Positions 1,209 through 32,458 of a stretch of DNA of 64,000 bases are shown in pieces. The first letter of the stretch is position 1. Each line of letters opens with the position of its first letter. The stretch spans positions 13,325 to 77,324 of the forward strand of contig DATBHB010000016.1 of the NCBI GenBank assembly GCA_036557705.1, in the 5' to 3' direction. This stretch comes from Xanthobacteraceae bacterium (lineage in GTDB: Bacteria > Pseudomonadota > Alphaproteobacteria > Rhizobiales > Xanthobacteraceae). Below the pieces are notes generated by a model. That model saw nothing but the letters and a program-made list of their open reading frames with translations. It did no database searches and was not told where the DNA came from. Made by a program: the position numbers and the translations under genes.

Positions 1209-1210
1209 CG

Positions 1211-6727: not shown

Positions 6728-6734
6728 GTAGACC

Positions 6735-9811: not shown

Positions 9812-9835
9812 CAGTTCTTAAGGGGTGACAGACGC

Positions 9836-11797: not shown

Positions 11798-12013
11798 ATG
11801 TTGACCAACTCGAAGATCGCGCTTTGCGTTGCGCTCATTCTCGCCAGCGCTTCCGCAGCGCTCGCCGCTCCTAAGCACGCAGTTCGTCACCACGCCGCCG
11901 TCGCGCGGCAAGTTCCGGCCAACGCCTACCTGAGCTTCGCATCGGTGCGGCCGAGCGAGCCGGGCAACATGAGAATCCAGGACATCGGCTTCAAGGAAAA
12001 TCTCGGCGATTAA
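11798..12013 (+). CDS. Small secreted hypothetical protein
   Basis: 71 aa. SD AAGGAGA, ATG 11798, signal peptide MLTNSKIALCVALILASASAALA, followed by a hairpin. Confidence 0.55.
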   Translation: MLTNSKIALCVALILASASAALAAPKHAVRHHAAVARQVPANAYLSFASVRPSEPGNMRIQDIGFKENLGD

Positions 12014-12075: not shown

Positions 12076-12327
12076 TATAGGACGCGAGCGCACCCGCCCC
12101 GATATCGCCGCGAGATCGCCCTTTAGAGAACCGATTCATGGGGCCTGTTCGCTTCATCAAGCTCGCGAAGGGGGACGCAAGGACGGCCTGCCCGTCCCAA
12201 AGCATTTAGGCAGGGGCGCGGCGCCTTGCCCGAGCCGGCGTCATCCGATAATTGCGGGAGGGCCCAAGCTTGGACAAGCCTCTGTCGACACGGGGGAATT
12301 TCTGGCCACGCGGAGGAATGGCGCCTC

Positions 12328-13620
12328 ATGGCCAATGTGGTTGTAGTCGGCTCCCAGTGGGGCGACGAGGGCAAGGGAAAAATTGTCGATTGGCTTTCCG
12401 AGCAGGCCGATATCGTGGTCCGCTTTCAGGGCGGCCACAACGCCGGCCACACCCTCGTCATCGATGGAGTCACCTACAAGCTCTCGCTGCTGCCTTCGGG
12501 AGTCGTGCGTCCGGGCAAGCTCTCGGTGATCGGAAACGGTGTGGTGCTCGATCCGCGCGCATTGATCGAGGAAATCGAACGCCTCGCGGCACAGGGTGTG
12601 ACCGTGACTCCGGCTAGCTTGCGAATCGCCGAGAATGCCACGCTGATCCTGCCGCTGCATCAGCAGCTCGACGTTGTGCGGGAGTCGGCGAGCGCTGCGA
12701 CGCGCATCGGCACGACGGGGCGCGGAATCGGGCCGGCCTATGAGGACAAGGTCGGCCGCCGTGCCATTCGGGTCATGGACCTTGCCGATCTCCCCGATCT
12801 CGACGGCAAGGTGGAGCGGCTCCTGTCTCATCATAATGCCTTGCGCCGAGGGCTGGGGCTCGAGCCCATTGCGGCAAGCGCTGTTCGCGAACAGCTCACC
12901 GAGGTCGCGCCGAGAGTACTTCCCTTCATGGACTCGGTCTGGTCGCTGCTTGACCGCAAGCGCCGCGAGGGCAGACGCATCCTCTTCGAAGGAGCCCAAG
13001 GCGGACTGCTCGATATCGATCACGGGACGTATCCGTACGTGACTTCGTCGAATACCGTGGCGGCCCAGGCGGCGACGGGATCGGGGCTGGGCCCGTCCTC
13101 GATCGATTACGTGCTCGGCATCTGCAAGGCCTATACGACCAGGGTGGGGGAGGGGCCGTTTCCGACCGAGCAGAAGAACGATATCGGCCGATTGATCGGC
13201 GAACGAGGGCGCGAGTTCGGCACCGTCACCGGCCGGGCGAGGCGCTGCGGGTGGTTCGATGCCGTCCTTGTGCGCCAGGCAGTGCGCACCAGCGGGATCG
13301 ACGGTTTGGCGCTCACCAAATTGGACATCCTCGATGGAATGAGCCAGATCAAGGTCTGCATTGCCTACAGATTGAACGGGCGCGTAATCGATTATCTTCC
13401 GGCCGGCGAGCATGCGCAGGCGCGAGTGGAGCCGGTCTACGAGACGATCGAGGGATGGCAAGCTCCGACTGCGCGTGCGAGGTCCTGGGCGCAGTTGCCG
13501 GCTCAGGCGATCAAATACGTCCGCCGCGTCGAGGAACTGGTCGGCTGCCCAGTCTCGTTGCTGTCGACCAGCCCCGAGCGCGAGGATACGATACTCATGC
13601 ACAACCCGTTCGAGAACTAG
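12328..13620 (+). CDS. purA: Adenylosuccinate synthetase
   Basis: Refined ATG 12328: [18 protein letters not shown] (P-loop), [16 protein letters not shown]. The ORF-track start 12226 is an extension. Confidence 0.95.
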
Positions 13621-13654
13621 GGCGCAAAGGGCATGCCGAACGTATAATTCTGCC

Positions 13655-15298
13655 ATGGCCGATTACTACCCGCTCATAGCCCGCGCTGTCGCCGGTCTCG
13701 AGAAGAACACCGGCGATACGCGTCGTGCCCTCTACGAGCGCGCGCGCGCCGCGCTCGTAGCGCAGTTGCGCAGCGTGTCGCCGGCCTTGAGCGAATCGGA
13801 CGTGACGCGCGAGCGACTCGCGCTCGAAGAGGCTGTTCGCAAGGTAGAGGCTGAATCGGTTCGACAGGCCCGACTGGGATCGCGTTCCGAGCCCAAGGCG
13901 AAGGTGAAGCCACCGGAAATGCCGCGCTGGGATGAGCCGCAACCGGCGCCACCCAGAGCCGCAGAGGAGCCGCCCAGTGCGCTGCCGCGTCGCGCAGGCG
14001 CGCTGCCGCGATCTGATAACGTGCAACGTGTCGCATCGCCGCGCAGCGAGAGCGCGTCAGAGCCTATCTCGACAGGGAGGGAGCGCGAGCAGCCCGACTC
14101 CGCGCTCGGTCTCGAAATACCCAGCCTGCCGGCGCCGCCGCCCTTCACGGCTCGACCGCAGCGTCCCCCGCTACGCGACCGGCCGACCACCGACCGCCAA
14201 TCCCTGCTCAACTCGGTCAACAGCTTCCGCAACTCGGTCTCGGAGACCGACGAGTTGCGCGAAGCACCAGCCCAATCGCCGAAATGGGCTCGTCGCAGCC
14301 ATCCGGAGGCTACGGCGCCGGCCCGCGATCTCGACCGCCTCGTGCCGCATGCGCTCGATCGCAACAGTTCCGATGAACTAATCCAGGATGCGCCCGCCCC
14401 GGAAATGCTCGAGCCCTCCCTTGGCATGGAGGAGCCGCGCCCCTTGCCGAACAGGCCGAGGCCGGCGCAGTTCGTTCGCGAAGAGGCGCCGAGGTCATTC
14501 GAGACTCGTGTCCGCCTCATCACGCTCGCTATGGGGCTCCTGATCGTTTCGGCAGTTGGCGGCGTGCTGGGTTGGCAATGGTCCAATTTGACGGATCTGT
14601 ATCGCTCATGGCGGGCGCCACCCGTCATGGAAGTCGCCGGTACCGAAACGCCCGCGCCGGCTTCGCGAACGAAGATTGCCGATCGGTTTGAACCTGGCGC
14701 CACAAACCAGCCGCAGCAGAAAACAACGCTGACGCCGGGCGCTTCGGAAGCTCCGACTGTTGCCCAGCGCGTGGTGCTCTACGAAGAGGATCCAGCCGAT
14801 CCGCAGGGCAAGCGCTTCGTCGGTTCGGCAATCTGGCGAACCGAAACAATATCGTCGGGGGCCGGCCAGCCGCCTGAAGTGGCGATTCGTGCCGATGTCG
14901 AGATTCCGGATCGCCAGTTGGCCATGACCTGGTCGCTGCGCCGTAATACCGACCCCACCTTGCCGGCGAGCCACACGGTCGAGATTACGTTCAAGCTGCC
15001 GAGCGACTTTGCATCGGGCGGAGTATCGAACGTGCCGGGCATCCTGATGAAGGAGGCGGAGCAGGCGCGCGGGGTCCCGCTTGCCGGCCTCGCGGTCAAG
15101 GTGACCAACGGCTTTTTCCTGATCGGGCTCTCATCGGTGGACGCCGACAAGGAGCGCAACATTGCGCTCCTCAAGGAGAAATCCTGGTTCGACATTCCGG
15201 TCGTCTATAATAACAACCGCCGCGCCATTCTGGCGCTCGAAAAGGGCACGCCGGGCGAACGCGTCTTTGCCGAGGCCTTCGCCGCCTGGCACCAATGA
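13655..15298 (+). CDS. Conserved-looking uncharacterised membrane protein (helical N-domain, Pro-rich linker, one TM, ~230-aa C-domain)
   Basis: Refined ATG 13655 (MADYYPLIARAV...); the ORF-track start 13412 would overlap purA. TM LITLAMGLLIVSAVGGVLGW. Confidence 0.7.
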   Translation: MADYYPLIARAVAGLEKNTGDTRRALYERARAALVAQLRSVSPALSESDVTRERLALEEAVRKVEAESVRQARLGSRSEPKAKVKPPEMPRWDEPQPAPPRAAEEPPSALPRRAGALPRSDNVQRVASPRSESASEPISTGREREQPDSALGLEIPSLPAPPPFTARPQRPPLRDRPTTDRQSLLNSVNSFRNSVSETDELREAPAQSPKWARRSHPEATAPARDLDRLVPHALDRNSSDELIQDAPAPEMLEPSLGMEEPRPLPNRPRPAQFVREEAPRSFETRVRLITLAMGLLIVSAVGGVLGWQWSNLTDLYRSWRAPPVMEVAGTETPAPASRTKIADRFEPGATNQPQQKTTLTPGASEAPTVAQRVVLYEEDPADPQGKRFVGSAIWRTETISSGAGQPPEVAIRADVEIPDRQLAMTWSLRRNTDPTLPASHTVEITFKLPSDFASGGVSNVPGILMKEAEQARGVPLAGLAVKVTNGFFLIGLSSVDADKERNIALLKEKSWFDIPVVYNNNRRAILALEKGTPGERVFAEAFAAWHQ

Positions 15299-16731
15299 GT
15301 CCCATGTATACGGATCTCGCACTCTATATCGACGGCGATTGGAAGAACGGCAACGGGCGTGACGGCGAGGAGGTCGTCAATCCTGCGACCGAGAAGCCGC
15401 TTGCACACCTGCCGCACGCAAACACAGCCGATCTCGATCTCGCTCTCGACGCCGCCAGACGAGGATTCGATGTCTGGCGGGCAACGAGTCCCTACGACCG
15501 CGCCAAACTGCTGCGCAACACAGCGGCGCTGGTGCGCCTGCGGGCGGATGCGATTGCACGCATCATGACCCAGGAGCAAGGCAAGGTTCTCGCCGAATCG
15601 CGCGCCGAGGTGCTGACAACCGCTGACATCATCGAATGGTTTGCTGAGGAAGGCCGCCGCGCCTATGGGCGCATCATACCGGGCCGCGGCAAGGGCGTGC
15701 GCCAACTGGTGGTGCAGGAGCCGGTCGGCGTGGTGGCAGCCTTCACGCCGTGGAACTTTCCTACCCTCACGCCCGCCCGCAAGATAGGTGCTTCGCTTGC
15801 CGCGGGCTGCGCAATCATCATCAAGGCATCCGAGGAGACGCCGGGAAGCTGCGTCGAACTCGTGCGGTGCTTTGTCGAAGCCGGTCTGCCGCCGGGTGTG
15901 CTCAATCTGGTCTTCGGCGTCCCGGCAGAAGTCTCCGAGCATCTCCTCGCCTCGGACATCGTGCGCAAGATATCTTTCACCGGGTCGGTTGCCGTCGGCA
16001 AGCATCTCGCCGGCCTTGCCGCCAAGGGGATGAAACGCGCCACCATGGAGCTTGGCGGCCACTCGCCGGTGGTCGTTTTCGGCGATGCCGATCCGGAGAA
16101 GACGGCCGATACGATCGCTGCTTTCAAATATCGCAATGCCGGTCAGGTTTGCATTTCTCCGACGCGGTTCTATGTGCAGGAGCCGGTCTACAACCGATTC
16201 CTGAAACGGTTCACCGAGTACGCCGAGCGCATCAACGTCGGCGATGGTCTCGAGAGCGGAATCACCATGGGCCCTCTCGCCAATCCTCGCCGCCTCGATG
16301 CCATGGAGGCGATCGTGAATGATTCGAAAACTCGCGGCGGCACCATCATGACCGGCGGAAAGCGCCGCGGCAATCAGGGTTATTTTTTCGAGCCGACCGT
16401 GGTTGCGGACTTGCCGGACGATTCCAAGCTGATGACTGAAGAGCCGTTCGGGCCGATTGCTCCCATCGTGCGGTTCAAGACTTTCGATGAAGTCGTCGCG
16501 CGTGCGAATTCGCTGAAGTTCGGGCTCGCCGCCTATGCGTTCACCGGCTCCACGAAAACGGCCAACGTGATCGGCGATGCGCTTGAGGCCGGAATGGTCG
16601 GCGTCAACAGCGTCGCGATCTCGACTCCCGAGACTCCGTTCGGCGGCGTCAAGGAGTCCGGCTACGGCCACGAAGGCGGCATCGAGGGGCTGGAAGTCTA
16701 CACGGTACGGAAATTCATCGCACAGGCGTGA
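15295..16731 (+). CDS. NAD(P)-dependent aldehyde dehydrogenase (succinate-semialdehyde dehydrogenase-like)
   Basis: 478 aa. ELGGHSP, catalytic Cys in NAGQVCISPTR, EEPFGP. ATG overlaps the upstream stop (ATGA). Confidence 0.9.
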   Translation: MSPMYTDLALYIDGDWKNGNGRDGEEVVNPATEKPLAHLPHANTADLDLALDAARRGFDVWRATSPYDRAKLLRNTAALVRLRADAIARIMTQEQGKVLAESRAEVLTTADIIEWFAEEGRRAYGRIIPGRGKGVRQLVVQEPVGVVAAFTPWNFPTLTPARKIGASLAAGCAIIIKASEETPGSCVELVRCFVEAGLPPGVLNLVFGVPAEVSEHLLASDIVRKISFTGSVAVGKHLAGLAAKGMKRATMELGGHSPVVVFGDADPEKTADTIAAFKYRNAGQVCISPTRFYVQEPVYNRFLKRFTEYAERINVGDGLESGITMGPLANPRRLDAMEAIVNDSKTRGGTIMTGGKRRGNQGYFFEPTVVADLPDDSKLMTEEPFGPIAPIVRFKTFDEVVARANSLKFGLAAYAFTGSTKTANVIGDALEAGMVGVNSVAISTPETPFGGVKESGYGHEGGIEGLEVYTVRKFIAQA

Positions 16732-17215: not shown

Positions 17216-17340
17216 CAAAATCGTTTGGGCGCGGTTCTATGCTCAATGCCACGTCAGGCGTTTTGCCCATCTACGGTGTCGCAAAAATTAAATGGCCGGG
17301 ATCGCTCCCGGCCATTACTTTGCTTGATCGAGTTTTGCTC

Positions 17341-19017
17341 TTAATCGAGCGGCTCGACCCGGATGATCGCCGAGCCGTGATTATTCCCGACCCACAGCAC
17401 CGGGTGCGGGCCGGTCTCTTGTACGAACACGCGGCGGATATTGGTGGTGTGCGGGAGAAGATAATCGACGGTCTGTTCGGTCTTGGTGTCGAGCCGGGTG
17501 ACGTGGTCGTTCGACATCGAGCCGGTCCACACTTCCGCGCCGCCTTTGCTCGGCACCACGTCATAAGGATTGCTCCACGGAACCGTGAGCGGGTATTCCT
17601 TCATCCGCTCGGTCGCCGGATCGAACATGCCGATCGCGTTGCCGGCATATTCGGCGAACCACAACCGGCCCTGATCGTCGAACCGGCCGCGGCGCGGCCG
17701 CGAGCGCTGGATCGGCGTTGTCCAGATCTTGACCTCGCCGGTCTTGGCGTTGCGCATGCCGATATTCGCATTTCCGAATTCGAGCATGTAAACGTTGTTA
17801 TCCTTGTCGCTGGGAAGTCCGTAGCCGCTTATCTGCCGGTCGGCGACCTTGGAGATTCCGAGATTCTCCCATTTGCCGGTCTTGATATCGAGCCGGTAGA
17901 GATTGCGGGTGGCCGTATCCGTCATCCAGATCTTGCCATCCACATACATGTGGGTCGGCGTGACCATGTTGGTCTGGGTGGTGAGGTCGAGCCATTCCTT
18001 GTTAAGCGGGTACGTCGTGACCTGTTTGGTCTTGCGGTCGATCTTGGCGGCGCCGCCCTGATAGGACAGCCCGATCCAGATATTTCCGTCCGGATCGAAT
18101 TCCAGGTCGAGCGATCCTTTCGGCTGCTCCGGCCGCAACAACGGGAGCGCGTGATCAGTGACCTTGCCGGTCTTTGGATCGAGCTCGCCGATGAACTGAT
18201 TTCCGAAATCGCTGTACCAGGCGTGACCGTCGGCATCGACGATCACGTCATGGGGCAGCGCCTCCTTGCGCGGCAGGTCATATTCCGTGATTAGTACTTT
18301 GGTTGCCCTGCCGGTCGGCCGCGGCAGCATCTTGAAGTCGTATTCCGGGCGATCCGGATTGCTCAGATTGACTCTGGCGAGGAACTCCGATGCGGGCTTC
18401 ATCATGTCCGGCCGCACCCGCGGGCGCTCGCTGCGCAGCCCGCCCTGCACGATCAACTGCGGCCGGGCCGGTACGCTCTCGGGCGCATAGCGGCCCATGC
18501 GCGTGAAGACCTGCTGGAATTCGTCCGCGGTATGCGGGTTGGTGAAAATGCGCTTGACCGTATGGCAGCCCTGACAATCGAGCAGGAACGCGGATTTGAG
18601 CCGGTTGTCGCCGGGGGAACTCATCAGCCATTCGGCATTGGAGAGTTGGGCGGTGATGTTCCTGGTCCTGGCGAGCTTGATGTCAGCGGTCGCGCCCGAG
18701 GCTCCGATGTCGACGCTCTTCGGCCCGACCAGATCATAGCCCGCGGCGCGGATCGTGATGGTGTACCTGCCGGGGTCGAGATTTGCCGCAGCGAAGCTGA
18801 AACGGCCCTTGTCGTCGCTGACGACGGTCTTGGCGATGGTCGAGCCTTCCTTCTTGGCGCTCACCAGCACGCCTTCCATCGAGCCTTCCTCTGTCGAGGA
18901 AACCTGGCCGCTGAGAGAAGGCGCGGTTTGCGCCTGGGCGCTGATGGAGAGCCCGGCCGAGAGAAGGATGCCGCCGAAGCCGACGGTCGTCGCAAGCAAC
19001 AGAGTCTTTAGTGACAT
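17341..19017 (-). CDS. Periplasmic CarboxypepD_reg-like / haem-c (CQGCH) / Vgb-NHL-like beta-propeller fusion protein, paralogue 1
   Basis: SD GGGAGA + ATG 19017. Signal MSLKTLLLATTVGFGGILLSAGLSISAQA. GQVSS..MEGVLVSAKKEGS..DDKGRFSF..PGRYTITIRAAGY, then CQGCH...FTRMGRY, then repeated blades (DGHAWYSDFGNQFIGELDPKTGKVT...). Confidence 0.85.
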   Translation of the reverse strand: MSLKTLLLATTVGFGGILLSAGLSISAQAQTAPSLSGQVSSTEEGSMEGVLVSAKKEGSTIAKTVVSDDKGRFSFAAANLDPGRYTITIRAAGYDLVGPKSVDIGASGATADIKLARTRNITAQLSNAEWLMSSPGDNRLKSAFLLDCQGCHTVKRIFTNPHTADEFQQVFTRMGRYAPESVPARPQLIVQGGLRSERPRVRPDMMKPASEFLARVNLSNPDRPEYDFKMLPRPTGRATKVLITEYDLPRKEALPHDVIVDADGHAWYSDFGNQFIGELDPKTGKVTDHALPLLRPEQPKGSLDLEFDPDGNIWIGLSYQGGAAKIDRKTKQVTTYPLNKEWLDLTTQTNMVTPTHMYVDGKIWMTDTATRNLYRLDIKTGKWENLGISKVADRQISGYGLPSDKDNNVYMLEFGNANIGMRNAKTGEVKIWTTPIQRSRPRRGRFDDQGRLWFAEYAGNAIGMFDPATERMKEYPLTVPWSNPYDVVPSKGGAEVWTGSMSNDHVTRLDTKTEQTVDYLLPHTTNIRRVFVQETGPHPVLWVGNNHGSAIIRVEPLD

Positions 19018-19199
19018 GAGTTTCTCCCTATTCTGTAAGCTTGTCGTCATCCCATTGAATCACGTGACAAGTACCGAGAGTCGCGTGCAGCGAGCGCCAC
19101 ATTCCCCCCATCAGCGCGTAAACGCGCTGACGGGGGAGAGGGAGCGCACCGAGTTCGCGGCACGGCTGTGCATCTATCACAGACGGAAACATGAGGTTG

Positions 19200-20846
19200 C
19201 TAATCCAGCGGCTCGATCCGCACGATCGAGGCGCCGTGATTGCTGCCCACCCAGAGCACCGGGCGGGGCCCGGTCTCCTGCACGAACACCCGGCGGATGT
19301 TCGTGCTCCTGGGCAGGAGATATTCGGTGATCTCTCCGGTCTTGGTGTCGAGACGCGCGACCAGATCGTTGAGCATCGAGCCGGTCCAGACTTCCGAGGC
19401 GTCCTTGGTCGGCACGACATCGTATGGATCGCCCCACTTGGTCGGGAGCGGATATTCCTTGATTTCGGCGGTCTTGGGATCGAAGACGCCGATCGCGTTG
19501 CCGCCATATTCGGCAAACCACAGCCGGTTTTGCTCGTCGACCCGGCCGCGGCGCGGTTTCGAGCCTTGCGTTGGCGTTCGGTAGATCGTGACCTTGCCGG
19601 TCTTGGCGTCGCGTAGCCCGATGCTGGTGCCGCCGAATTCGAGCTGCCACAGGTTATTCTGTCGGTCGGTCGGCATGCCATAGGCGCTGATCTGCCGCCC
19701 ACCCGGATCCTTGCTTGGTCCCAGGTTCTCATACTGGCCGGTCTTCACATCGAGACGATAGCTATCGTGCGGCTCCTGGTTGTTGGTCCAGACTTTGCCG
19801 TCCACATCGGAGTGTTGCGGCGACACCATCGAGGCCTGAGTGTTGCGGCCCCACCACTCCTTTGGGAATGGATAGGTGGTGATTTGTTTCGTCTTGCGGT
19901 CGATCCTGGCGATTGCCGACTGATACATCATCGATATCCAGAGATTCCCGCTCGGGTCGAGCTCCAGGTCGAGCGTGCCCTTGGGCTGCTCCTCGCGCAC
20001 GACCGGCAACGCATAGTCAGTGACCTTTCCGGTCCTGGGATCGAGCTCGCCGACGAAGAGCGAGCCGAAATCGGAATACCAGGCGTGACCGTCGGGATCG
20101 ACGATGACGTCATGGGGCTCCGCGTTTTTGCGGGCCAGATCGTATTCGGTGATGATGACCTTCGTGGAGCGTCCCTTCGGCCGCGGCAGGGTCTTCAAAT
20201 CGTATTCCTTGCCATCCGGATTGGAGAGGTTGACGCTGAAAATGTAGTCGGCCGCCGCCTGCGCCCGATTCGCCGCAACCCGCGGGCGTTCGCTGCGCGC
20301 CCCGCCAGTGACCAGGAGTTGGGGTTGTGACGGCACGCTGCCCGGATAATAGCGCCCCATCCGCCGAAAGATCTGCTGGAATTCCTCGGCCGTGTGCGGA
20401 TGGGTAAACACCCGCTTAAGCGTGTGGCAGCTCACGCAGCCGGGGAGGAAGGCTTTCTGGTTGTCCGAGCCGGGCGCGCTCATGAGCCATTCGGCATTGG
20501 AAAGCATGCCGGTGATGTTGTGCGCCTTGTCGAGCTTAAGATCGGCGGTCGCTTTGCCGGCTCCGGTGATCTCGACCGATTTCTGGCCATCGAGCACGTA
20601 GCCGGCCGCCCGGATCGCAACAGCGTAGCGGCCGGGCTCGAGCCGGTCGGCCGGGAAGCTGTATTCGCCTTTGTCGTTGCTTACCACCGTGGTGTCGATG
20701 GTCGAGCCTTCCTTCTTGACGCTGACCAGGACGCCTTCCATGCGGCTTTCCTCGGCGGACGAGACCGTTCCGCTCAGCGCCTGGGCCGAAGCGCCGGTCG
20801 ATGCCGCGACCATCGCGCCGACTAGCAGCCAAAGATGTCTGTACAT
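19200..20846 (-). CDS. Same fusion architecture, paralogue 2 (haem motif CVSCH)
   Basis: SD GGAGGA + ATG 20846. Signal MYRHLWLLVGAMVAASTGASAQA. Collinear with paralogues 1 and 3. Confidence 0.85.
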   Translation of the reverse strand: MYRHLWLLVGAMVAASTGASAQALSGTVSSAEESRMEGVLVSVKKEGSTIDTTVVSNDKGEYSFPADRLEPGRYAVAIRAAGYVLDGQKSVEITGAGKATADLKLDKAHNITGMLSNAEWLMSAPGSDNQKAFLPGCVSCHTLKRVFTHPHTAEEFQQIFRRMGRYYPGSVPSQPQLLVTGGARSERPRVAANRAQAAADYIFSVNLSNPDGKEYDLKTLPRPKGRSTKVIITEYDLARKNAEPHDVIVDPDGHAWYSDFGSLFVGELDPRTGKVTDYALPVVREEQPKGTLDLELDPSGNLWISMMYQSAIARIDRKTKQITTYPFPKEWWGRNTQASMVSPQHSDVDGKVWTNNQEPHDSYRLDVKTGQYENLGPSKDPGGRQISAYGMPTDRQNNLWQLEFGGTSIGLRDAKTGKVTIYRTPTQGSKPRRGRVDEQNRLWFAEYGGNAIGVFDPKTAEIKEYPLPTKWGDPYDVVPTKDASEVWTGSMLNDLVARLDTKTGEITEYLLPRSTNIRRVFVQETGPRPVLWVGSNHGASIVRIEPLD

Positions 20847-20910
20847 CGTTTCCTCCGACTTTCTTTGCACCGTTATCGCACGTCGCCGGTTCCGGCGCTA
20901 TGGCAACTTT

Positions 20911-21075
20911 GTAGCCCGGATTGCACGACCGCATTTACGGTCGCGCCGCAACCGGAGCTTTGCAAGGCGGTCGTGCCATCCGGGGGCTGCCTCACCCGTG
21001 GTTACCCCCGATTTCGCGGCGCGCAACGTTTTCACCGACTGCAAGCACGTGCGGGCGCCGCTCAATGTGGGCTAC
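20911..21075. repeat. Degenerate REP-like unit
   Basis: GTAGCCCGGATTGCACGACCGC...GCTCAATGTGGGCTAC. The right end is mutated relative to the consensus CAATCCGGGCTAC. Confidence 0.5.
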
Positions 21076-21078
21076 GAT

Positions 21079-21290
21079 TTATGCCGTGAAGAATTTCAAG
21101 AAGTGATCGTAGACGCCGTCGGGGGCTTCCACTTGGAGGGCATGGCCGGTCGGGAGCGGCTGCGCATCGACGAGATTGCTCGCGAACTGGCGCCAGACGG
21201 TGGGCGTGCCGTGCTCACGCGTCGGCGAGGGCGCTACTATCCACTCTACGAAACTCTTCTGACGGAGTAAATCTTGCCATTGATGCTTTC
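21079..21290 (-). pseudogene. Probable remnant of the C-terminus of an alpha/beta-hydrolase gene
   Basis: Minus-strand frame reads ...HGTPTVWRQFASNLVDAQPLPTGHALQVEAPDGVYDHFLKFFTA*, like hydrolase C-termini (catalytic His context GH.LQ.E.P). There is no start codon and an in-frame stop about 87 codons upstream. Confidence 0.35.
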
Positions 21291-21415
21291 TCGCCGCCTG
21301 CGCGGCGGTCGGCCGCAGCCGCTGACATGGTATTCCTATTTAGAATGACGTGGCGTAGCTTCGCTTCAAGCTGCCTCACGGATGTGTCGTTATAGCTTGA
21401 TACGATAGAACGCCC

Positions 21416-22396
21416 ATGACCCTCGCGCGACGCTCATTTTTGCAACTCGCAACAGGCGCCGCCGTACTGCCGGGAGCAAGCCGGCTCGCATCGGCGCAGA
21501 CGTATCCGGCGCGGCCGATCACCATGATCGTTCCATTTGCTCCGGGTGGCCCCACCAGTGTGCTTGGACGGCTCGTGGCCGAGCGGATGGGAACGGCGAT
21601 CGGCCAACCAGTTGTTGTCGAGAACGTCGGCGGAGCGGATGGCAGCATAGGCAACGTCCGGGCAGCACATGCGAAACCCGACGGTTACACGATCGAGCTC
21701 GGCACGACTTCAACACATGTGCTCAATGGTGCTTTTTATTCGGCTCAATACGACGTGCTGAAAGATTTTGCGCCTATTGTGCTACTGGCGACGAGTCCCA
21801 ATGTACTTTTTGCAAAGAAAACGATGCCGGGAAACGACTTGGCGGAAATGATCGCCTGGTTGAAAGCCAATCCCGGTAAAGCCTCGGCCGCAACCTTCGC
21901 GACCGGTATCCGCCTCGTCACCGAAGTTTTTCAGAGAGAAACCGGGACGCATTTTGCAATCGTGCCGTACCGCGGCAGCGCCCCTGCATTGCAGGATTTG
22001 CTGGCCGGTCAGATCGACCTCTCATTCGACGGGGCGTTGCAATTGTCCCAGGTGCGGGCGGGCAACATAAAAGCCTATGCGATAGCCAGCGACTCGCGCT
22101 CGGCGCTTGCCCCCAATATTCCGACCTTTCGGGAAATGGGATTGCCTTCCGTTTCATACGTCACCTGGTGGGGCCTCTTCGCGCCCAAGGGCACGCCGAG
22201 CGACATTATCGCCCGGCTCAACCGGGCCGCCGTGGAAGCAATGGCCGACACCGCGCTCCGCTCACAACTTGCCGATCTCGGGTTCGAGGCCGTCCCCCGC
22301 GAAACTCAGACTCCGAAGGCGCTTGCCACGCTGCAGAAGGCCGACGCCGAGAAATGGTTGCCGCTGATCAAGGAATTCGGGATCAAGGCGGAGTGA
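21416..22396 (+). CDS. Bug-family (TctC-like) tripartite tricarboxylate transporter substrate-binding protein
   Basis: 326 aa. Tat-like signal MTLARRSFLQLATGAAVL; ITMIVPFAPGGPTS motif region. Confidence 0.85.
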   Translation: MTLARRSFLQLATGAAVLPGASRLASAQTYPARPITMIVPFAPGGPTSVLGRLVAERMGTAIGQPVVVENVGGADGSIGNVRAAHAKPDGYTIELGTTSTHVLNGAFYSAQYDVLKDFAPIVLLATSPNVLFAKKTMPGNDLAEMIAWLKANPGKASAATFATGIRLVTEVFQRETGTHFAIVPYRGSAPALQDLLAGQIDLSFDGALQLSQVRAGNIKAYAIASDSRSALAPNIPTFREMGLPSVSYVTWWGLFAPKGTPSDIIARLNRAAVEAMADTALRSQLADLGFEAVPRETQTPKALATLQKADAEKWLPLIKEFGIKAE

Positions 22397-22427
22397 ATTG
22401 TCTAAGCTTCGGCCATTGGAGGAGCTG

Positions 22428-23399
22428 ATGAAAGCTTCGTGTCGATTCCTTTGCACCGCCATCGTTGCCTTCGTTTCGCTCTTCGGGGTGGGTGCCTCAA
22501 GCGCATGGTCGCAGTCGGCAGCGACCATCAAGCTCGTTGTTCCCTATCCGCCGGGAGGCGGCATCGATGCGTTGGCCCGGATTATCGCCGAGCAGGTTGG
22601 GCGCGCGCAGGGACCGGCCATGGTCATCGAAAACCGTCCTGGAGCGGGCACCGAAATCGGTACCGAAGTCGTGGTGCGCTCCATGGCCGACGGCAATACG
22701 CTGCTGGTCAATAATGCGGCGCTGCTGCTCCTGCCGCATCTGCGAAAGGTCGACTACGATCCGTTCGCCGATCTTGCCCCGATCTGCAATCTCGCGAGCA
22801 CACCCAACATCCTTGTGGTCAACAGCAACTCTCCGTTCAAAAACCTCGACGATTTCCTGCGCGCCGCACGGGGCAAAGCTGGCGGACTGACCTACGGCTC
22901 GGCGCCCGGAGGGCTCGCTAACGTGGCTTTTGAAATGCTCGCGCATCGCGCCGGCATCCGCCTGACCTTCGTGCCGTTCGGCGGCACGACGCCAGCGATC
23001 AACGCGCTGCTCGGCGAGCATATCGATGCTGCGATGGCGGACTATCCGGCCGCGGCCGGTCAATTGAAGGGCGGGAAATTGCGCGCGCTTGTTGTCACCT
23101 CGCGCAAGCGGATGGAGGCGCTTCCAAACGTTCCAACCGCAGAGGAACTGGGGTACAGAGATTATGAAGTCGAGGTATGGTACGGCATGTTCGCTCCGGC
23201 GAAAACGCCGCCGGAGGCGATCTCTCGGCTTTCGGACTGGCTCAGTAGCGCGATACGGGCTCCCCAAGTCAGAGCAAAGCTGGCGGCGCAGGAAATCACT
23301 CCGGTTGCCGCCTGCGGCGCCGATTTCGCCACCTATCTGCGTAAACAATCCGACGACTACGGCCGCGCAATCCGCGAGAGCAACATGAGGGCTGAGTAG
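22428..23399 (+). CDS. Bug-family (TctC-like) substrate-binding protein, second copy
   Basis: SD GGAGGA + ATG 22428 (ORF-track TTG 22398). Signal MKASCRFLCTAIVAFVSLFGVGASSAWS; VVPYPPGGGID. The stop TAG lies inside the REP GTAG. Confidence 0.85.
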   Translation: MKASCRFLCTAIVAFVSLFGVGASSAWSQSAATIKLVVPYPPGGGIDALARIIAEQVGRAQGPAMVIENRPGAGTEIGTEVVVRSMADGNTLLVNNAALLLLPHLRKVDYDPFADLAPICNLASTPNILVVNSNSPFKNLDDFLRAARGKAGGLTYGSAPGGLANVAFEMLAHRAGIRLTFVPFGGTTPAINALLGEHIDAAMADYPAAAGQLKGGKLRALVVTSRKRMEALPNVPTAEELGYRDYEVEVWYGMFAPAKTPPEAISRLSDWLSSAIRAPQVRAKLAAQEITPVAACGADFATYLRKQSDDYGRAIRESNMRAE

Positions 23400-23534
23400 C
23401 CCGGATTTGCCCTTGCAAATCCGGGGAGAAGTCGCGGTCCCGGATTGCGCGATCGTCCGTTGCGCAAGTCTCGCGGTTACGTGCCATCGCGCAATCCGGG
23501 CTACGGTCGCGTGCCATCGCGCAATCCGGGTGGC
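23396..23534. repeat. Composite REP array (left flank of RAYT)
   Basis: GTAGCCCGGATTTGCCCTTGCAAATCCGGGG ... CCCGGATTGCGCGAT ... GCGCAATCCGGGCTAC GGTCGCGTGCCATCGCGCAATCCGGG. Confidence 0.9.
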
Positions 23535-23536
23535 CG

Positions 23537-24070
23537 TCAGGAACGTTCGCCGAAGCTTCCTTGACCCTGAGTGAAATCTCCGCCCCAGTCCTGCGGCAAT
23601 AGTCCACATCGGACGTAGTCATGAAACGAGGAATGAGCCCAATCTCGTACGCGAGAGACGAGGCCATGCTTCACCGGATTGAAATGAATGTAGTCCACGT
23701 GCCGCTCGAAATCTCTGTCATCGCGGATGGTGTGCTCCCAGAATCGACGCTGCCACAGTGCAGCCTCTCCGTTTTGGCGGCGCGCGACAGTTGTGCCTGA
23801 TCGCACGACCGCGGCGGTAAAGCGCCGTTTGATGAGCCGCCATCTATTCGAGTAGTCGGTATCATCCTCTGGTAGGGTCATGATCATGTGCAGGTGATCG
23901 GGTAAGATTACGACGGCATCGATAATGAACGGGTGCGAGCTGCACGTCAGTCTCGTGGCAATGCGCAAGCCCTCGATGTGATCGATCAGCGCTCGTGAGT
24001 TACGATTGGCAAGGGTCAGGGTAAAGAAGAACTTTCCACCTGGAACCAAATTCCGCCGGTACCTGACCAT
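23537..24070 (-). CDS. REP-associated tyrosine transposase (RAYT; IS200/IS605-like Y1 HUH enzyme)
   Basis: SD GGAGGAG + ATG 24070, 177 aa. HUH motif LPDHLHMIMTL; Tyr region VDYIHFNPVKHGLV. The ORF-track N-terminal extension to 24217 merely translates REP DNA. Confidence 0.85.
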   Translation of the reverse strand: MVRYRRNLVPGGKFFFTLTLANRNSRALIDHIEGLRIATRLTCSSHPFIIDAVVILPDHLHMIMTLPEDDTDYSNRWRLIKRRFTAAVVRSGTTVARRQNGEAALWQRRFWEHTIRDDRDFERHVDYIHFNPVKHGLVSRVRDWAHSSFHDYVRCGLLPQDWGGDFTQGQGSFGERS

Positions 24071-24128
24071 CCGCCTCTCCTCCGCAGTGACGAGCACCCG
24101 CGGCCCCCCGATTGCGGAATGCGCGATC

Positions 24129-24265
24129 GTAGCCCGGATTTGCGTCTTCGCAAATCCGGGAACGCCCCCGGATTTGCGCGACGAGACAGCGAAGTAACTC
24201 TCGCGATTATGCGCCATCGCGCAATCCGGGCTACGGTCGCGTGCCGTCGGCGAAATCCGGGCTAC
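24129..24265. repeat. Composite REP array (right flank of RAYT)
   Basis: GTAGCCCGGATTTGCGTCTTCGCAAATCCGGG ... GCGCAATCCGGGCTAC GGTCGCGTGCCGTCGGCGAAATCCGGGCTAC. Confidence 0.9.
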
Positions 24266-25215
24266 GGCAACGTGAAGACGATCAATTCATTCGTGGCGCC
24301 GGCCCCGCCGGGAGTAAAGGAGCCGCCTGCGACATAGACGTGCTCGCCGTCGGTGGCAGCGCCGGTGGCGTGGCGGCTGTGAGGCATCGGCGCCAGCTTG
24401 CGCCAGCTCTCGGTCTTTGGATCGAAGGCTTCGTTCTCCGCATTGGTGATGTTGGGCGGGTACTCGCCGCCGAGCACGAGGAAAAGGTCCTTGTAAACGG
24501 TTGCGGCCAATCCGCTGCGCGGCGTCGGCATCGGCGGTGCCGATGTCCAGCTGCCGGTCTTCGGATCGTAGACGTCATGCATGCCTGTACGCTCGGTTGC
24601 AGGACCGAAGCGCCCGCCGGCGATGTGGATCTTGCCCGCGATCGCGCCGGCCGCCAAATGGTCGCGCGCCTTCGGCAGGGGCGCCAGCTCATTCCAGGTG
24701 TTGGTCGCGGGGTCATAGGCTTCGTGGGTCGAAACTGCCGTCCCGCTGCCGTTGCGGCCGCCGATGGCGTGAATCTTGCCGTCGAGAGCCACCGCGCCGA
24801 CCGAGCCGCGTTCGGTTTTCATCCGCGGGAGGATGCGCCAGGTGTCGAGCATCGGGTCGTATTCGAATGCGGCGTTCTGCGCTTCCCGGTCGGCGCTGCG
24901 CGCAAAGCCGCCGATCAGATAGATCTTTCCATCGAGGACCGCAGTGCCCATGTGATCGAGCGCGCGCGGAAGCGGGGCGCGACTCCGCCATTTGTCCGTC
25001 ACCGGATCGTATTCAACGTGGTACGGGCCGATGAAGCCGAGCACGCTCCCGCCCATGACGTGGACCTTGCCATTCGCATAGGCGACCGAGACCTGGGAGA
25101 GCGCCGCAGGAACCGGCGTTTTCATCGCCCAGCTTCCCGTTGATTGGGCCCACGCGTTTGCGGTCAGTGCGCCCAGCACGATCATGCCGGCGACAAATAA
25201 ATTTCTTTGAGACAC
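24262..25215 (-). CDS. Secreted Kelch-repeat beta-propeller protein
   Basis: SD GGGGAGGA + GTG 25215. Signal ...NLFVAGMIVLGALTANAWA. Repeated ...DGKI(Y/H).IGG... Kelch blades. The stop TAG lies inside the REP CTAC. Confidence 0.8.
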   Translation of the reverse strand: MSQRNLFVAGMIVLGALTANAWAQSTGSWAMKTPVPAALSQVSVAYANGKVHVMGGSVLGFIGPYHVEYDPVTDKWRSRAPLPRALDHMGTAVLDGKIYLIGGFARSADREAQNAAFEYDPMLDTWRILPRMKTERGSVGAVALDGKIHAIGGRNGSGTAVSTHEAYDPATNTWNELAPLPKARDHLAAGAIAGKIHIAGGRFGPATERTGMHDVYDPKTGSWTSAPPMPTPRSGLAATVYKDLFLVLGGEYPPNITNAENEAFDPKTESWRKLAPMPHSRHATGAATDGEHVYVAGGSFTPGGAGATNELIVFTLP

Positions 25216-25237
25216 GATATCCTCCCCGATATTTGGC

Positions 25238-25564
25238 GTAGCCCGGATTTGCGTCTTCGCAAATCCGGGGACGAGTCCCGGATTGCGCGATAGACAGTGA
25301 GGCAACTCTCGCGGTTATGTGCCGCGCGCAATCCGGGCTACGGCCTCTGTAGCCCGGATTTGCGTCTTCGCTAATCCGGGAACGCCCCCGGATTGCGCGA
25401 CGAGACAGCGAGGTAACACTCGCGATTATGCGCCATCGCGCAATCCGGGCTACCGTAGCCCGGATTTGCGTCTTCGCAAATCCGGGTAGGTCTTGACGAT
25501 CCCGGACTGCGCGATCAGGCAGCGAAGTAACTCTCCCGATTATGCGTCGCGCAATCCGGGCTAC
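25238..25564. repeat. Three tandem composite REP (REPIN-like) units of about 104-110 bp
   Basis: Units 25238-25341, 25349-25453 and 25455-25564. Each runs GTAGCCCGGATTTGCGTCTTCGC(A/T)AATCCGGG ... CCCGGA(T/C)TGCGCGA ... GCGCAATCCGGGCTAC. Confidence 0.9.
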
Positions 25565-25569
25565 GGATT

Positions 25570-26046
25570 TCAGGCTCCGTCGCCGCTGCGGGAAATCTGG
25601 ACGTTGATGCCGTCGGGATCCTTGACGTGCACTCCGGCATAATCCCCCTGTAACGGAGTTAAGCCGCGATCTTTCAGATAACGCTGAGCCGCTTCATTGC
25701 TGATGCGGGGCACTCCTATCGCGAAGTGATCGACGATGCCGGCCGGGGCTCCATGGTTGAGAGAAACCAGCATTTTCGAAGGGGTGCCCAGGCGAATGAT
25801 ACCGCGCGACGGCTCTTGGCTTTTCACCGAAAAGCCGAAGCTCTTTTGATAAAAGTCCACGGAACGTTGCAGGTCCGATACATGAATGCTGACGTGGTCG
25901 ATGTCGGCACTCTTGAAATCAACGTTTTCCTGCGCGGTGGCAGCGGTTCCGCTCGCTGCGATCAGCGCGAGACCGGAAACCAGATCGCGCCGGCTGAGCG
26001 AGCCTTTTTCGAATCGGGTCACGAGATCGGAAATAATCGATTCCAT
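25570..26046 (-). CDS. VOC (glyoxalase/bleomycin-resistance/dioxygenase) family protein with twin-arginine signal
   Basis: SD GGGAGGAAG + ATG 26046. MESIISDLVTRFEKGSLSRRDLVSGLALIAASGTAATAQ, then a single VOC module (IDHVSIHVSDLQRSVDFY...). Confidence 0.75.
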   Translation of the reverse strand: MESIISDLVTRFEKGSLSRRDLVSGLALIAASGTAATAQENVDFKSADIDHVSIHVSDLQRSVDFYQKSFGFSVKSQEPSRGIIRLGTPSKMLVSLNHGAPAGIVDHFAIGVPRISNEAAQRYLKDRGLTPLQGDYAGVHVKDPDGINVQISRSGDGA

Positions 26047-26085
26047 GGTGACTTCCTCCCTGATCGTTGACTTGACGTTTTGATT

Positions 26086-26253
26086 GTAGCCCGGATCGGC
26101 GCTTGCGCCCATAACCGCGTTTGCGCGCGTCTTCGGCACGCTATGGCGCGGGCGCGAATCCGTGGATGCCTTCGGAGCCCCTGGATTGCGTGATCGCGAT
26201 CAGCAGCAGCGCGTTCTGGTGCGGGCGTAGCCGCGATCACGCAATCCGGGCTA
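26086..26253. repeat. Degenerate REP-like unit
   Basis: GTAGCCCGGATCGGCGCTTGCGCC ... CCTGGATTGCGTGATCGCG...CGCGATCACGCAATCCGGGCTA. Confidence 0.7.
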
Positions 26254-26318
26254 TCGATGCAAATGGCCGGACCATTCGGGGCCCGGCCATTCGAAATTAC
26301 CCGATTACCTCATTCGCT

Positions 26319-28010
26319 TCAGTCGAGCGGCTCGACCTTCACGATCGAAGCGTCGTGGTTGCTGCCGACCCACAGCACTGGGCGCGGTCCCGTTTCCTGG
26401 ACGAAGACCCGGCGGATATTGGTGTTGGTCCTGGGCAGGAGATATTCGGTGTACTCCCCGGTCTTGGTATCGAGCCGGTCCACCAAGTCGTTGACCATCG
26501 AGCCGGTCCACACTTCGGAAGCGTCTTTGTTCGGCACGACGTCGTACGGCGCGCCCCACTTGCTCGGCAGCGGATATTCCTTGATCTCGGCGGTCTTCGG
26601 GTCGAACATGCCGATCCCGTTGGCGCCGTATTCGGCAAACCACAACCGGTTCTGCGAGTCGACCCGGCCGCGGCGCGGCTTCGAGCCCTTCGTGGGTGTG
26701 ATGTAGATCGTGACCTTGTTGGTCTTGGCGTCCCGGATGCCGATGCTGGTGCCGCCGAAGTTCAACAGGTAGACGTTATTCTGCTGATCGGTCGGCATGC
26801 CGTAGGCGTCGATCTTGGTGCCCCGCGCATCGATGGCCTCGCCCACGTTCTCATATTTGCCGGTTGCGACGTCCAACCGGTAGTGCGCGTGATTTTCCTG
26901 GTTGTTGGTCCAGACCTTTCCGTCGACATCCGAATGCTGCGGCGAAACCATCGAGGCCTGCGTCGAGGGCGACTGCCATTCCTTCGGGAACGGATAGGTG
27001 GTCACCTGGTGGGTCTTGCGGTCCACTTTCGCAATGCCGGCCTGATACATCATCGAGAGCCAGACGTTCTGCTGTTGCGCATCGAACTCGATGTCGAGAC
27101 CGCCTTTGGGCTGCTCAGGCTTGAGCACCGGGATCGGGATATCGCTCGCCGCGCCGGTTTTCGGATCCATCACGCCGACGAACTGATTGGCGAAATCGGA
27201 GTACCAGACCTGACCGTCGCGATCGACGATGACATCGTGGGGCTGCGTCTCTTTGCGCGGCAGGTCGTATTGGGTGATGATGACCCTGGTCGCGCGGCCG
27301 GTCGGACGCGGCTGCAACTTGAAGCTGTACTCGATGCCCTCCTGATTGCCGAGCGTGACGCTCGCGAGGTAGGCCGAGGCGGGGCCCATCTGGTTGGCGG
27401 CGATCGGCGGCCGTTCGCCGCGCGGACCTGGGAGCAGCTTTTGCGGGTGCGCCGGCACCGTGCCGGGGGAATAGGTGCCCATCCGGTGGAATACCTGCTG
27501 ATATTCTTCCGGAGTATGCGGATTGCTGAGGATCCGCCTCACCGTATGGCAGCCGACGCAATTGGTCATGAACTGCTTCTGCGCGTCGCCTCCGGGCACG
27601 CTGTTGAGCCATTCGGCATTTGACAGCATGGGAAGAATGGCGCGCCTCTGCACCCTGCCGAGCTTGACGTCGGCCTTGGCGGCCGTGCCGGCGGCGACGG
27701 TGGCCTGCTTCGGGCCGACAAGCGTATAACCCGAGGCGCGGATCGAGATCGCGTAGGTGCCGGGGGCGAGGCGGTCGGCCGGGAAACTGAAATTGCCCTT
27801 GTCGTCGGACACCACCGAGACGGTGATATTGGAGCCCTCCTTTTGGGCGCTGACGATGACACCTTCCATATTGCCTTCCTCGGCAGAGGAAACGGTGCCA
27901 GTCAGCGCCGCGGAGGTTTGCGCGAACGCACTATTCGAGGCCAATCCGGCCTGGAACAGAAGGGCGCCGAAACCGACGCTCGCCAGAAGGCCGAAATTTC
28001 CAAGTCGCAT
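26319..28010 (-). CDS. Same fusion architecture, paralogue 3 (haem motif CVGCH)
   Basis: SD GGGAGA + ATG 28010, 563 aa. Signal MRLGNFGLLASVGFGALLFQAGLASNSAFA. Long runs identical with paralogue 2 (TQASMVSPQHSDVDGKVWTNNQE, NIRRVFVQETGPRPVLWVGSNH). Confidence 0.85.
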   Translation of the reverse strand: MRLGNFGLLASVGFGALLFQAGLASNSAFAQTSAALTGTVSSAEEGNMEGVIVSAQKEGSNITVSVVSDDKGNFSFPADRLAPGTYAISIRASGYTLVGPKQATVAAGTAAKADVKLGRVQRRAILPMLSNAEWLNSVPGGDAQKQFMTNCVGCHTVRRILSNPHTPEEYQQVFHRMGTYSPGTVPAHPQKLLPGPRGERPPIAANQMGPASAYLASVTLGNQEGIEYSFKLQPRPTGRATRVIITQYDLPRKETQPHDVIVDRDGQVWYSDFANQFVGVMDPKTGAASDIPIPVLKPEQPKGGLDIEFDAQQQNVWLSMMYQAGIAKVDRKTHQVTTYPFPKEWQSPSTQASMVSPQHSDVDGKVWTNNQENHAHYRLDVATGKYENVGEAIDARGTKIDAYGMPTDQQNNVYLLNFGGTSIGIRDAKTNKVTIYITPTKGSKPRRGRVDSQNRLWFAEYGANGIGMFDPKTAEIKEYPLPSKWGAPYDVVPNKDASEVWTGSMVNDLVDRLDTKTGEYTEYLLPRTNTNIRRVFVQETGPRPVLWVGSNHDASIVKVEPLD

Positions 28011-30888: not shown

Positions 30889-30942
30889 CTGCCGAATGTA
30901 GCTCCCCGCCTGGAACAAATCAAGAACATTTTTTTGCTGGGC

Positions 30943-32430: not shown

Positions 32431-32458
32431 CGCGTTGGTTTCCAAGGCGGGGGTTGGA

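Follow-up and report, generated by a model that had tools for sequence, protein, structure and literature searches.

A cytochrome c joined to a β-propeller is a known enzyme design. A class I-like cytochrome c and a propeller lie on one polypeptide in cd1 nitrite reductase and in the type II quinohaemoprotein alcohol dehydrogenases, where the central pocket of the propeller holds the reactive centre. These pockets, lined with Arg, His and Tyr, bind an anionic cofactor, haem d1 or pyrroloquinoline quinone (PQQ). The same design logic is seen in four proteins, W1–W4, encoded in a 64,000-nucleotide stretch of a Xanthobacteraceae contig; this whole stretch is called the window here (G+C ~61%). Their parts are of known kinds, and no function has been described for this combination of a haem domain with a propeller like that of virginiamycin B lyase (Vgb). 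We rank first the reading that the W1–W4 family consists of periplasmic oxidoreductases with a built-in haem relay, at a probability of about 0.4.

The propellers of cd1 nitrite reductase and the type II quinohaemoproteins are eight-bladed and come from unrelated families, whereas that of W1 is seven-bladed and of the Vgb type. Identity with either kind of enzyme was rejected: W1–W4 had no match to PF02239 (Cytochrom_D1) or to the PQQ and GSDH families of Pfam, and only W4 gave a local TIGR03606 match, at 26 bits against a cut-off of 434. The holoenzyme of quinohaemoprotein amine dehydrogenase (QHNDH) combines cytochrome c, Ig-like β-barrel domains and a seven-bladed propeller. These parts are on separate subunits in QHNDH, whereas those of W1 are on one polypeptide. 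The haem-binding domain of the QHNDH α subunit (PDB 1jju, 1jmx) was the best match of the family haem domain, a weak one with marginal E-values; QHNDH has two haems and the family one. The cysteine tryptophylquinone cofactor of QHNDH sits in a third, cross-linked γ subunit that is made with a radical S-adenosylmethionine (SAM) enzyme. No genes for a QHNDH-type γ subunit, radical SAM maturase or propeller β subunit were found beside the family in the window or among recurrent neighbours. The radical SAM genes of the window were rejected as such maturases, being of the PA0069 family (29671–30918) and QueE-like instead. SorB of the SorAB sulfite dehydrogenase (2blf chain B), whose model the N-terminal domain of W4 matches, is a small monohaem domain that carries electrons away from a periplasmic catalytic subunit. 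SorB docks on a molybdenum subunit, whereas the family haem domain is fused to the propeller, and the molybdenum-cofactor neighbours of some relatives have no signal peptide.

On the propeller side, Vgb of Staphylococcus aureus and S. cohnii (PDB 2z2n, 2z2p, 2qc5) has the blade motif P-x-G-I...DG.(I/V)W(F/Y)...IG.(L/I)D in common with the window proteins. To this, W1–W3 add an export signal, an N-terminal β-sandwich and a haem-c domain. A redox enzyme family with a lactonase-type propeller has lately been described, namely the lactonase-type (clade III) nitrous oxide reductase L-NosZ (PMC13477213). Against its model (NF052460, cut-off 700), W4 scored 18 bits and W1–W3 gave no match, and L-NosZ was rejected; the His-rich copper pattern expected for CuZ is absent from the W1-type propeller, which has one conserved His. 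In teneurin-like proteins a transthyretin-like domain is followed by an NHL propeller (PMC6425310), an architectural parallel only. A preprint on PQQ-6-blade proteins was set aside, as it concerns a different propeller family.

The four genes and the parts of W1 are listed below.

17341–19017, minus strand: W1, from open reading frame (ORF) and translation; 558-aa precursor
19200–20846, minus strand: W2, 548-aa paralogue; CVSCH at 20424–20438, RMG at 20355–20363
26319–28010, minus strand: W3, 563-aa paralogue; CVGCH at 27546–27560, RMG at 27477–27485
38775–40007, plus strand: W4, 410-aa distant relative with signal peptide, haem-c domain and seven-bladed propeller; CNGCH at 38901–38915
18928–19017, minus strand: W1 putative signal peptide, residues 1–30 (...SISAQA|Q), hydrophobic core and AXA motif; cleavage predicted
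18667–18918, minus strand: W1 CarboxypepD_reg domain (transthyretin-like β-sandwich), residues ~34–117; Pfam PF13620, E 1.2e-11
18304–18666, minus strand: W1 haem-c domain, residues 118–238; five or six helices and a conserved LPRP linker
18562–18576, minus strand: W1 CXXCH (CQGCH), residues 148–152, with C148, C151 and H152
18493–18501, minus strand: W1 R-M-G, with Met174 as presumed sixth haem ligand
17344–18303, minus strand: W1 seven-bladed Vgb-type β-propeller, residues 239–558, from Foldseek and the family profile
Within 17344–18303, minus strand: W1 pocket residues H256/D257, G301, Y399, R442/R443, Y485 and R528, from conservation at blade positions
17291–17316, minus strand: intrinsic-terminator-like hairpin, 11-bp stem and T-rich tail, 25 nt past the W1 stop; a pattern match only

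All four ORFs proposed in a preliminary description of the window were present where it had placed them and on the same strands. The motifs that it had named were also found (CQGCH, CVSCH and CVGCH; FTRMGRY, FRRMGRY and FHRMGTY; and PHDV..D.DG..WYSDF blades), as was CNGCH in W4. It had given the four proteins one order of parts, which was correct for W1–W3; W4 lacks CarboxypepD_reg, so only the haem domain and the propeller are common to all four. The propeller, put at ~380 aa, is instead ~320 aa long and has seven blades. Pfam called CarboxypepD_reg (E ~1e-11 to 1e-12) and Vgb_lyase (PF24684, E 1e-23 to 1e-43; 3.7e-28 for W1) in W1–W3, as the preliminary description had anticipated. The cytochrome domain was not called, the best score being PF00034 with E 0.025 in W3. 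For W4, Pfam gave Vgb_lyase alone (1e-43). Pairwise identity among W1, W2 and W3 was 59–67% (W1–W2 64%, W1–W3 59%), and W4 was 27% identical to W1.

Haem domain and propeller pocket

A hydrophobic N-terminal signal sequence ending in an AXA site was read by eye in each of W1–W4. By these predicted Sec-type signal peptides, W1–W4 are assigned to the periplasm, where cytochrome c maturation acts and to which it requires export. The 3D structure of W1 was modeled using AlphaFold2 with 56 sequences (mean predicted local distance difference test score, pLDDT, 89; predicted template-modelling score, pTM, 0.88). In the model, disordered residues 1–30 (pLDDT <50) were followed by a β-sandwich, a helical CXXCH domain and seven four-stranded blades. 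The CarboxypepD_reg domain was all-β, with pLDDT >90. A pTM of 0.88 over three domains suggests that their arrangement in W1 is fixed.

Conservation was scored in 48 full-length members, namely 45 diverse representatives (down to ~29% identity) and W1–W3. Cys148, Cys151 and His152 were kept in 48/48, and each of the 45 representatives had a single CXXCH at the same position. No Cys other than those of CXXCH was present in 19 of the 48 members (18 of the 45 representatives). Met174 was conserved in 47/48 and Arg173 in 39/48. The CXXCH and the Met of the RM motif, whose conservation among orthologues the preliminary description had proposed as a check, were thus kept. CXXCH is also found in W4 and in its Microvirga homologue. 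Ahead of blade 1, a Pro-Arg-Pro linker was kept in 43–44 of the 48 members and in W4.

When the haem-domain profile (A5) was compared with the PDB, the top scores were from the QHNDH α subunit (1jju_A, E 6.6e-4; 1jmx_A, 0.015), cytochrome c553 (0.02) and SorB (0.26). The whole motif C..CH...R....TPE.W....RM was aligned between the family haem domain and QHNDH α, and Met174 fell on the RM of the latter. In a Pfam scan of 20 single haem domains, the hits were all sub-threshold: Dehyd-heme_bind in 5/20, Cytochrome_CBB3 in 3/20 and Cytochrom_C in 2/20. The haem domain of W4 covered 78 of the 80 positions of the NCBIfam SorB model (E 4.7e-7, 29.8 bits, cut-off 93) and matched QH_alpha with E 0.0018. 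These matches are consistent, if weakly, with a divergent cytochrome c domain that binds one haem and would have its nearest relatives among the electron-relay domains of periplasmic dehydrogenases. We infer that haem is covalently loaded at the CXXCH of W1–W4. The haem is probably His/Met six-coordinate, through His152 and Met174, as judged from the conserved motifs.

For the propeller, a Foldseek search of the W1 model against the PDB gave Vgb as the best match (2z2n, 2z2o, 2z2p, 2qc5), with E ~1e-20, template-modelling (TM) scores (target) of 0.83–0.88 and 18% identity. In this search no PDB chain spanned more than the propeller of W1, and TM (query) was at most 0.48. The family profile also matched Vgb in the PDB (E 3e-52); its other matches were NHL/Pizza designs, HTCS sensor domains, PknD, DFPase, Drp35 and PAL. 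W4 matched Vgb with E 4e-46 in a PDB sequence search.

In Vgb, His228, Glu268 and His270 are the catalytic and Mg2+-binding residues. The Vgb H270A mutant is inactive, according to the title of PDB 2z2p. Residues 5–291 of Vgb were rebuilt from HMMER alignments and aligned to the family. In the MAFFT register, His228 fell on Arg442, Glu268 on Asn483 and His270 on Tyr485. In a blade-for-blade register, His228 fell on Tyr485 and His270 on Arg528. In either register the Mg2+-binding and catalytic residues of Vgb are replaced in the aligned W1-type sequences, and the residues replacing them are themselves conserved. Scores against the NCBIfam Vgb(A)/Vgb(B) models were 50–104 bits, against a cut-off of 600.

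The pocket positions are on the innermost strands of the blades, with the following conservation.

Blade 1, motif P-H-D: His256 in 45/48, Asp257 in 43/48
Blade 2: Gly301 in 47/48
Blade 3: variable
Blade 4: Tyr399 in 43/48
Blade 5, motif P-R-R: Arg442 in 47/48, Arg443 in 46/48
Blade 6, motif P-Y-D: Tyr485 in 42/48
Blade 7, motif N-x-R: Arg528 in 42/48

By these positions, the pocket appears as a cationic set of His, Tyr and Arg with no obvious multi-ligand metal site. W1–W3 have an identical pocket core and differ in loops, so that any diversification among them is confined to loops. The diversification of substrate or partner that the preliminary description had suggested for the copies was therefore not reflected in the pocket core.

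Possible functions of the W1–W4 family

In the proposed mechanism, W1–W3 and the shorter W4 would be exported by the Sec route to the periplasm, where a single haem would be attached covalently at CXXCH. The conserved Pro-Arg-Pro linker would fix the haem domain onto the seven-bladed Vgb-type propeller. With the Mg2+-dependent lyase site of Vgb apparently lost, a cationic pocket of His256-Asp257, Tyr399, Arg442-Arg443, Tyr485 and Arg528 would stand in its place and could hold an organic anion as substrate, or else an anionic cofactor without a covalent bond. Electrons from oxidation of the substrate (or for its reduction) would be exchanged, via haem c, with a soluble carrier of the periplasm, as they are through the cytochrome domains of quinohaemoprotein dehydrogenases, SorAB and cd1 nitrite reductase. 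The closeness of haem to pocket, the redox catalysis and the nature of the substrate are the parts of this scheme that we infer.

An absolutely kept haem site, export and a relay-like haem domain are what would be expected of an enzyme passing electrons between its pocket and a periplasmic carrier. The replacement of His228, Glu268 and His270 indicates that the lyase chemistry of Vgb is not retained. The preliminary description had proposed a periplasmic redox enzyme rather than a lyase. The signal peptides and the replaced Vgb residues agree with this proposal, whereas every solved propeller relative is non-redox.

Several results weigh against an oxidoreductase. The cytochrome sequence matches, in Pfam and in the PDB profile search, were all under curated thresholds. 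A haem-free model of the isolated W1 haem domain (pLDDT 85) gave no cytochrome c match in Foldseek, where the best E was 0.58. In the Foldseek and profile searches of the PDB, the solved propeller relatives were lyases, lactonases or hydrolases, sensor or kinase domains, and designed proteins, with no redox enzyme among them. No redox cofactor site was evident in the propeller, either in the 48-member alignment or with PQQ, d1 and copper family models. In the 48 members His256 is the sole well-conserved His of the propeller, and conserved Cys residues are found only in CXXCH. Clustering of 1154 ORFs from the window and 83 related loci gave no conserved neighbour encoding a redox partner; the neighbourhood comparison that the preliminary description had put forward thus yielded no functional partner.

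Also against an oxidoreductase, a haem-less homologue on the megaplasmid of Ralstonia GMI1000 keeps PHD, PHG, PYG, ARR and VR, with His replacing Tyr485 in blade 6. Most of the pocket is therefore not limited to haem-fused proteins. The Pro-Arg-Pro motif is absent ahead of the first blade of this homologue. PQQ enzymes, however, also occur both with and without fused cytochromes. The haem-less propeller gene lies ~2 kb downstream of an ORF with the pectin-methylesterase-like motif GNQDTLF (locus L088, 25–621 and 2650–3885). This could be a hint of uronate or pectin chemistry in the haem-less branch.

The same homologue bears on the main rival explanation, somewhat less probable, in which the propeller would be a non-redox enzyme that acts on a substrate bearing a carboxylate, for example as a metal-independent β-elimination lyase, a lactonase or a hydrolase. 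The charge would be neutralised by Arg, with His or Tyr as base and acid; the haem would be accessory, as a structural element, a redox or gas sensor gating the activity, or a stabiliser. The homology of the propeller to Vgb fits this explanation, as do the further solved enzymatic relatives DFPase, Drp35 and PAL, which are lactonases or hydrolases. The PL24 and PL25 propeller lyases are metal-independent uronate lyases, and a His/Tyr/Arg pocket with no obvious metal site resembles them; the Ralstonia homologue, with most of the pocket and no haem, is near the GNQDTLF ORF. A cytochrome c acting in a non-redox way on a propeller protein also has a precedent in TfcP with PilY1 (PMC8833165). However, it would be costly to keep an accessory haem site in 48/48 members across phyla, and with the His/Met pattern that is typical of electron carriers. 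The closest relatives of the haem domain are relay domains of dehydrogenases, no polysaccharide lyase was among the PDB sequence and fold matches, and the catalytic residues of Vgb are gone.

Still more doubtful is a non-catalytic protein, a periplasmic electron carrier or adaptor whose propeller and β-sandwich would dock a protein, a polymer or a surface while the haem shuttles electrons. NHL- and Vgb-type propellers are often binding platforms, and HTCS sensor domains and PknD were among the matches. Domains of the CarboxypepD_reg fold commonly serve for interaction or as spacers. The lack of an evident cofactor site, the high copy number and the reuse of the CarboxypepD_reg and haem cassette on another C-terminal domain are also in line with a carrier. 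On the other hand, conservation of the pocket at 88–98% across phyla, at canonical active-site positions of the blades, favours a small-molecule site over a protein interface, and no partner gene was conserved in the window and the 83 loci.

A true streptogramin B (virginiamycin B) lyase, an antibiotic-resistance enzyme as automatic annotation says, has almost no chance in spite of the Pfam Vgb_lyase matches, the JGI and NCBI names and Vgb as best PDB match: it was ruled out by the active-site alignment and the NCBIfam cut-offs, and the exported W1–W3, with two extra domains and 18% identity in the propeller, differ from Vgb, a single domain of ~300 aa.

The oxidoreductase reading can be widened to a new class of periplasmic haem-c-linked enzymes on a Vgb/lactonase-type propeller, with a pocket for an anionic substrate or a non-covalent cofactor (quinone or tetrapyrrole). 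Its members would be widespread, and present in multiple copies, among uncultured soil bacteria of the Alphaproteobacteria, Acidobacteriota and other phyla, and would have their N-terminal module in common with at least one further family, of ~720-aa proteins. In this wider form we consider it less likely than not. If W1–W4 are true redox enzymes, they would provide a new catalytic scaffold beside the few cytochrome-fused propeller enzymes, namely cd1 nitrite reductase, the quinohaemoproteins and cNosZ.

Family distribution and paralogue history

A word-indexed protein search gave >6000 clusters at E≤1e-5, nearly all from soil metagenomes. Where names were given by JGI or NCBI, family members were called "virginiamycin B lyase" or "streptogramin lyase". 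An exhaustive search of representatives at 50% identity gave 11,038 at E≤1e-3, 3,712 at E≤1e-10 and 491 at E≤1e-30. The haem and propeller architecture is not rare: as a family it is very large in metagenomes. Lyase names are thus borne by thousands of proteins from soil metagenomes that lack the catalytic residues and are exported, with a haem site, and resistome surveys counting such names would overestimate streptogramin resistance in soil.

At least 230 relatives were found in a scan of one genome per species (alignment A4). The best 80 of these were almost all labelled as metagenome-assembled genomes (MAGs). They included Xanthobacteraceae, Beijerinckiaceae and Micropepsaceae of the Alphaproteobacteria and, outside that class, Acidobacteriota, Beta-, Gamma- and Deltaproteobacteria, Binatia, Verrucomicrobiia, Elusimicrobia and, by label, Actinomycetota. 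Two or more family copies were present in 15 of 81 loci. The family size, the many phyla and the frequent tandem copies make a role common in soil periplasms likely. The plasmid collection yielded no W1-type gene of full length.

W4 is a member of a separate large subfamily. A homologue with 48% identity is encoded on a megaplasmid of the cultured Microvirga ossetica (locus L089, 5917–7170; NZ_CP016617.1). It has CTGCH and the same blade pocket, except for Arg in place of the blade-1 His. As a cultured rhizobial carrier of a W4-type gene, M. ossetica would be a tractable host.

No solved structure covering the whole architecture was found in the PDB by sequence, profile or fold searches, and Pfam and NCBIfam held no curated model specific for it. 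A literature search, which covers little of the subscription journals, gave nothing relevant on haem-fused Vgb-like proteins. The statement of the preliminary description that no characterised member is known therefore stood, as far as the PDB and the searchable literature go.

The ~720-aa sister family was found in four loci, three of which (L018, L028 and L047) were examined directly.

L018: sister-family genes at 3061–5223 and 5442–7643
L028: sister-family genes at 989–3151, 3177–5072 and 6133–7830
L047: sister-family gene at 9603–11765

Its members have a CarboxypepD_reg domain homologous to that of W1 (31% identity, E 2e-7) and one CXXCH at about residue 175. The C-terminal domain is different from the propeller and had no Pfam or PDB match. 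In Verrucomicrobiia, Terriglobia and a deltaproteobacterium, the genes often form tandem arrays that adjoin W1-type genes. This suggests that the β-sandwich plus haem c may be a reusable module.

On a related MAG contig (L001), three directly tandem copies (a, b and c) lie beside a convergent aldehyde dehydrogenase gene. The best-match pairs with the window were W1 and copy c (74%), W2 and the middle copy b (71%), and W3 and the first copy a (72.5%). Paralogues were 56–67% identical to one another, against 71–74% between orthologue pairs. The window copies are in the same order as in L001 and adjoin the same aldehyde dehydrogenase gene (15295–16731). The orthologue pairing and shared order indicate that the triplication is old and has been retained.

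In the window, W2 and W3 are separated by the following spacer.

20871–26318, no strand assigned: W2–W3 spacer, ~5.4 kb, with two TctC genes, an IS200-like remnant, a Kelch protein and a VOC/glyoxalase gene (Pfam)

By comparison with L001, we read it as a probable insertion into an ancestral tandem triple. An ORF within it (23537–24217, minus strand) had a weak IS200-like Y1 transposase match (E 1.3e-4, just under the Pfam cut-off) and may be a remnant of the insertion event. A second ORF (24262–25305, minus strand) encodes a Kelch-repeat propeller protein of 347 aa (Kelch_1, E 1e-47), which is locally and weakly similar to the radical copper oxidase GlxA (E 2e-8, far under the cut-off). A VOC/glyoxalase-type gene (25570–26139) adjoins it.

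Neighbouring genes

Recurrent neighbours were considered as partners and rejected. TctC, present in 17 loci, is of a family with a great many members in these lineages. For ParE and the aldehyde dehydrogenase, each in 6 loci, synteny within a lineage seems to explain the recurrence. In 11 loci the family gene is preceded, on the same strand, by an upstream gene for a CoxL-like molybdenum large subunit of the xanthine dehydrogenase type (~780 aa). Examples are listed here; there are 8 further loci.

L001: CoxL-like gene at 3667–6009
L015: CoxL-like gene at 5463–7799
L021: CoxL-like gene at 5545–7881

In 7 of the 11 loci, the CoxL-like gene is within ~320 bp of the family gene, with a 30-bp overlap in L021. 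The CoxL-like protein has no signal peptide and would thus be cytoplasmic; with its gene also missing from the window, it was rejected as partner. It appears to stand alone, as genes for FAD or FeS subunits were not noticed beside it.

The two further small c-type cytochromes mentioned in the preliminary description were present by Pfam.

31912–32445, minus strand: cytochrome c', PF01322, E 1.9e-16
36823–37314, plus strand: class I cytochrome c, PF13442, E 1e-11

No link to W1–W4 was found for their suggested role as redox partners, and homologues of the class I cytochrome were found in just two related loci. CXXCH-bearing neighbours were present in only 18 loci and were heterogeneous. Neither the window nor the recurrent neighbours included pqq genes. 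The remaining neighbours in the window have unrelated housekeeping or catabolic roles: purA, moaB, the PA0069-family radical SAM gene, queD/queE, MFS transporters and Amidohydro_2.

A DUF6152 protein is encoded divergently from W3, 196 bp away (28206–28826, plus strand; probable start near 28410, MTRKAFG...). Its signal peptide ends in ...APAVA, and the predicted mature protein starts with His-His-Ser-Phe; relatives begin with AHHS or GHHS. The mature N-terminal His could suggest metal binding. DUF6152 was present in 7 loci and, besides the window, lay within 5 kb of family genes in 6 loci. The taxa are from distant phyla (Vicinamibacterales, Terriglobia, Bryobacteraceae and Micropepsaceae). 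No relative of DUF6152 was found in the PDB, and no paper on it was found in the literature search. In 8 loci, genes for a secreted ~300-aa family with no Pfam match adjoined DUF6152 and/or lay immediately upstream of family genes, for example in the following.

L027: secreted ~300-aa family at 5934–6791
L050: secreted ~300-aa family at 5941–7649
L038: secreted ~300-aa family at 6941–7876
L063: secreted ~300-aa family at 1498–2589
L067: secreted ~300-aa family at 10831–11844

A tblastn search gave no copy of it in the window.

Around W1, a GGGAG Shine-Dalgarno sequence lies 7 nt ahead of the ATG at 19017, and a longer start at an ATG at 19050 is possible. The terminator-like hairpin at 17291–17316 sits between W1 and the convergent aldehyde dehydrogenase gene; the region had no more terminator-like sites than expected from shuffled sequence. 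The 182-bp W2/W1 spacer contains a GC-rich inverted repeat, CCCCCGTCAGCGCG-TTTA-CGCGCTGATGGGGG, with no T-run (window ~19098–19130, minus-strand reading). It was missed by the terminator scan and could be an attenuating hairpin or a repeat element. An ORF of 628 aa at 13412–15298 (plus strand) had coding-like GC3 and was matched by neither Pfam nor NCBIfam models. Its listed extent runs ~200 nt into the 3' end of purA (12226–13620), so its real start is probably later.

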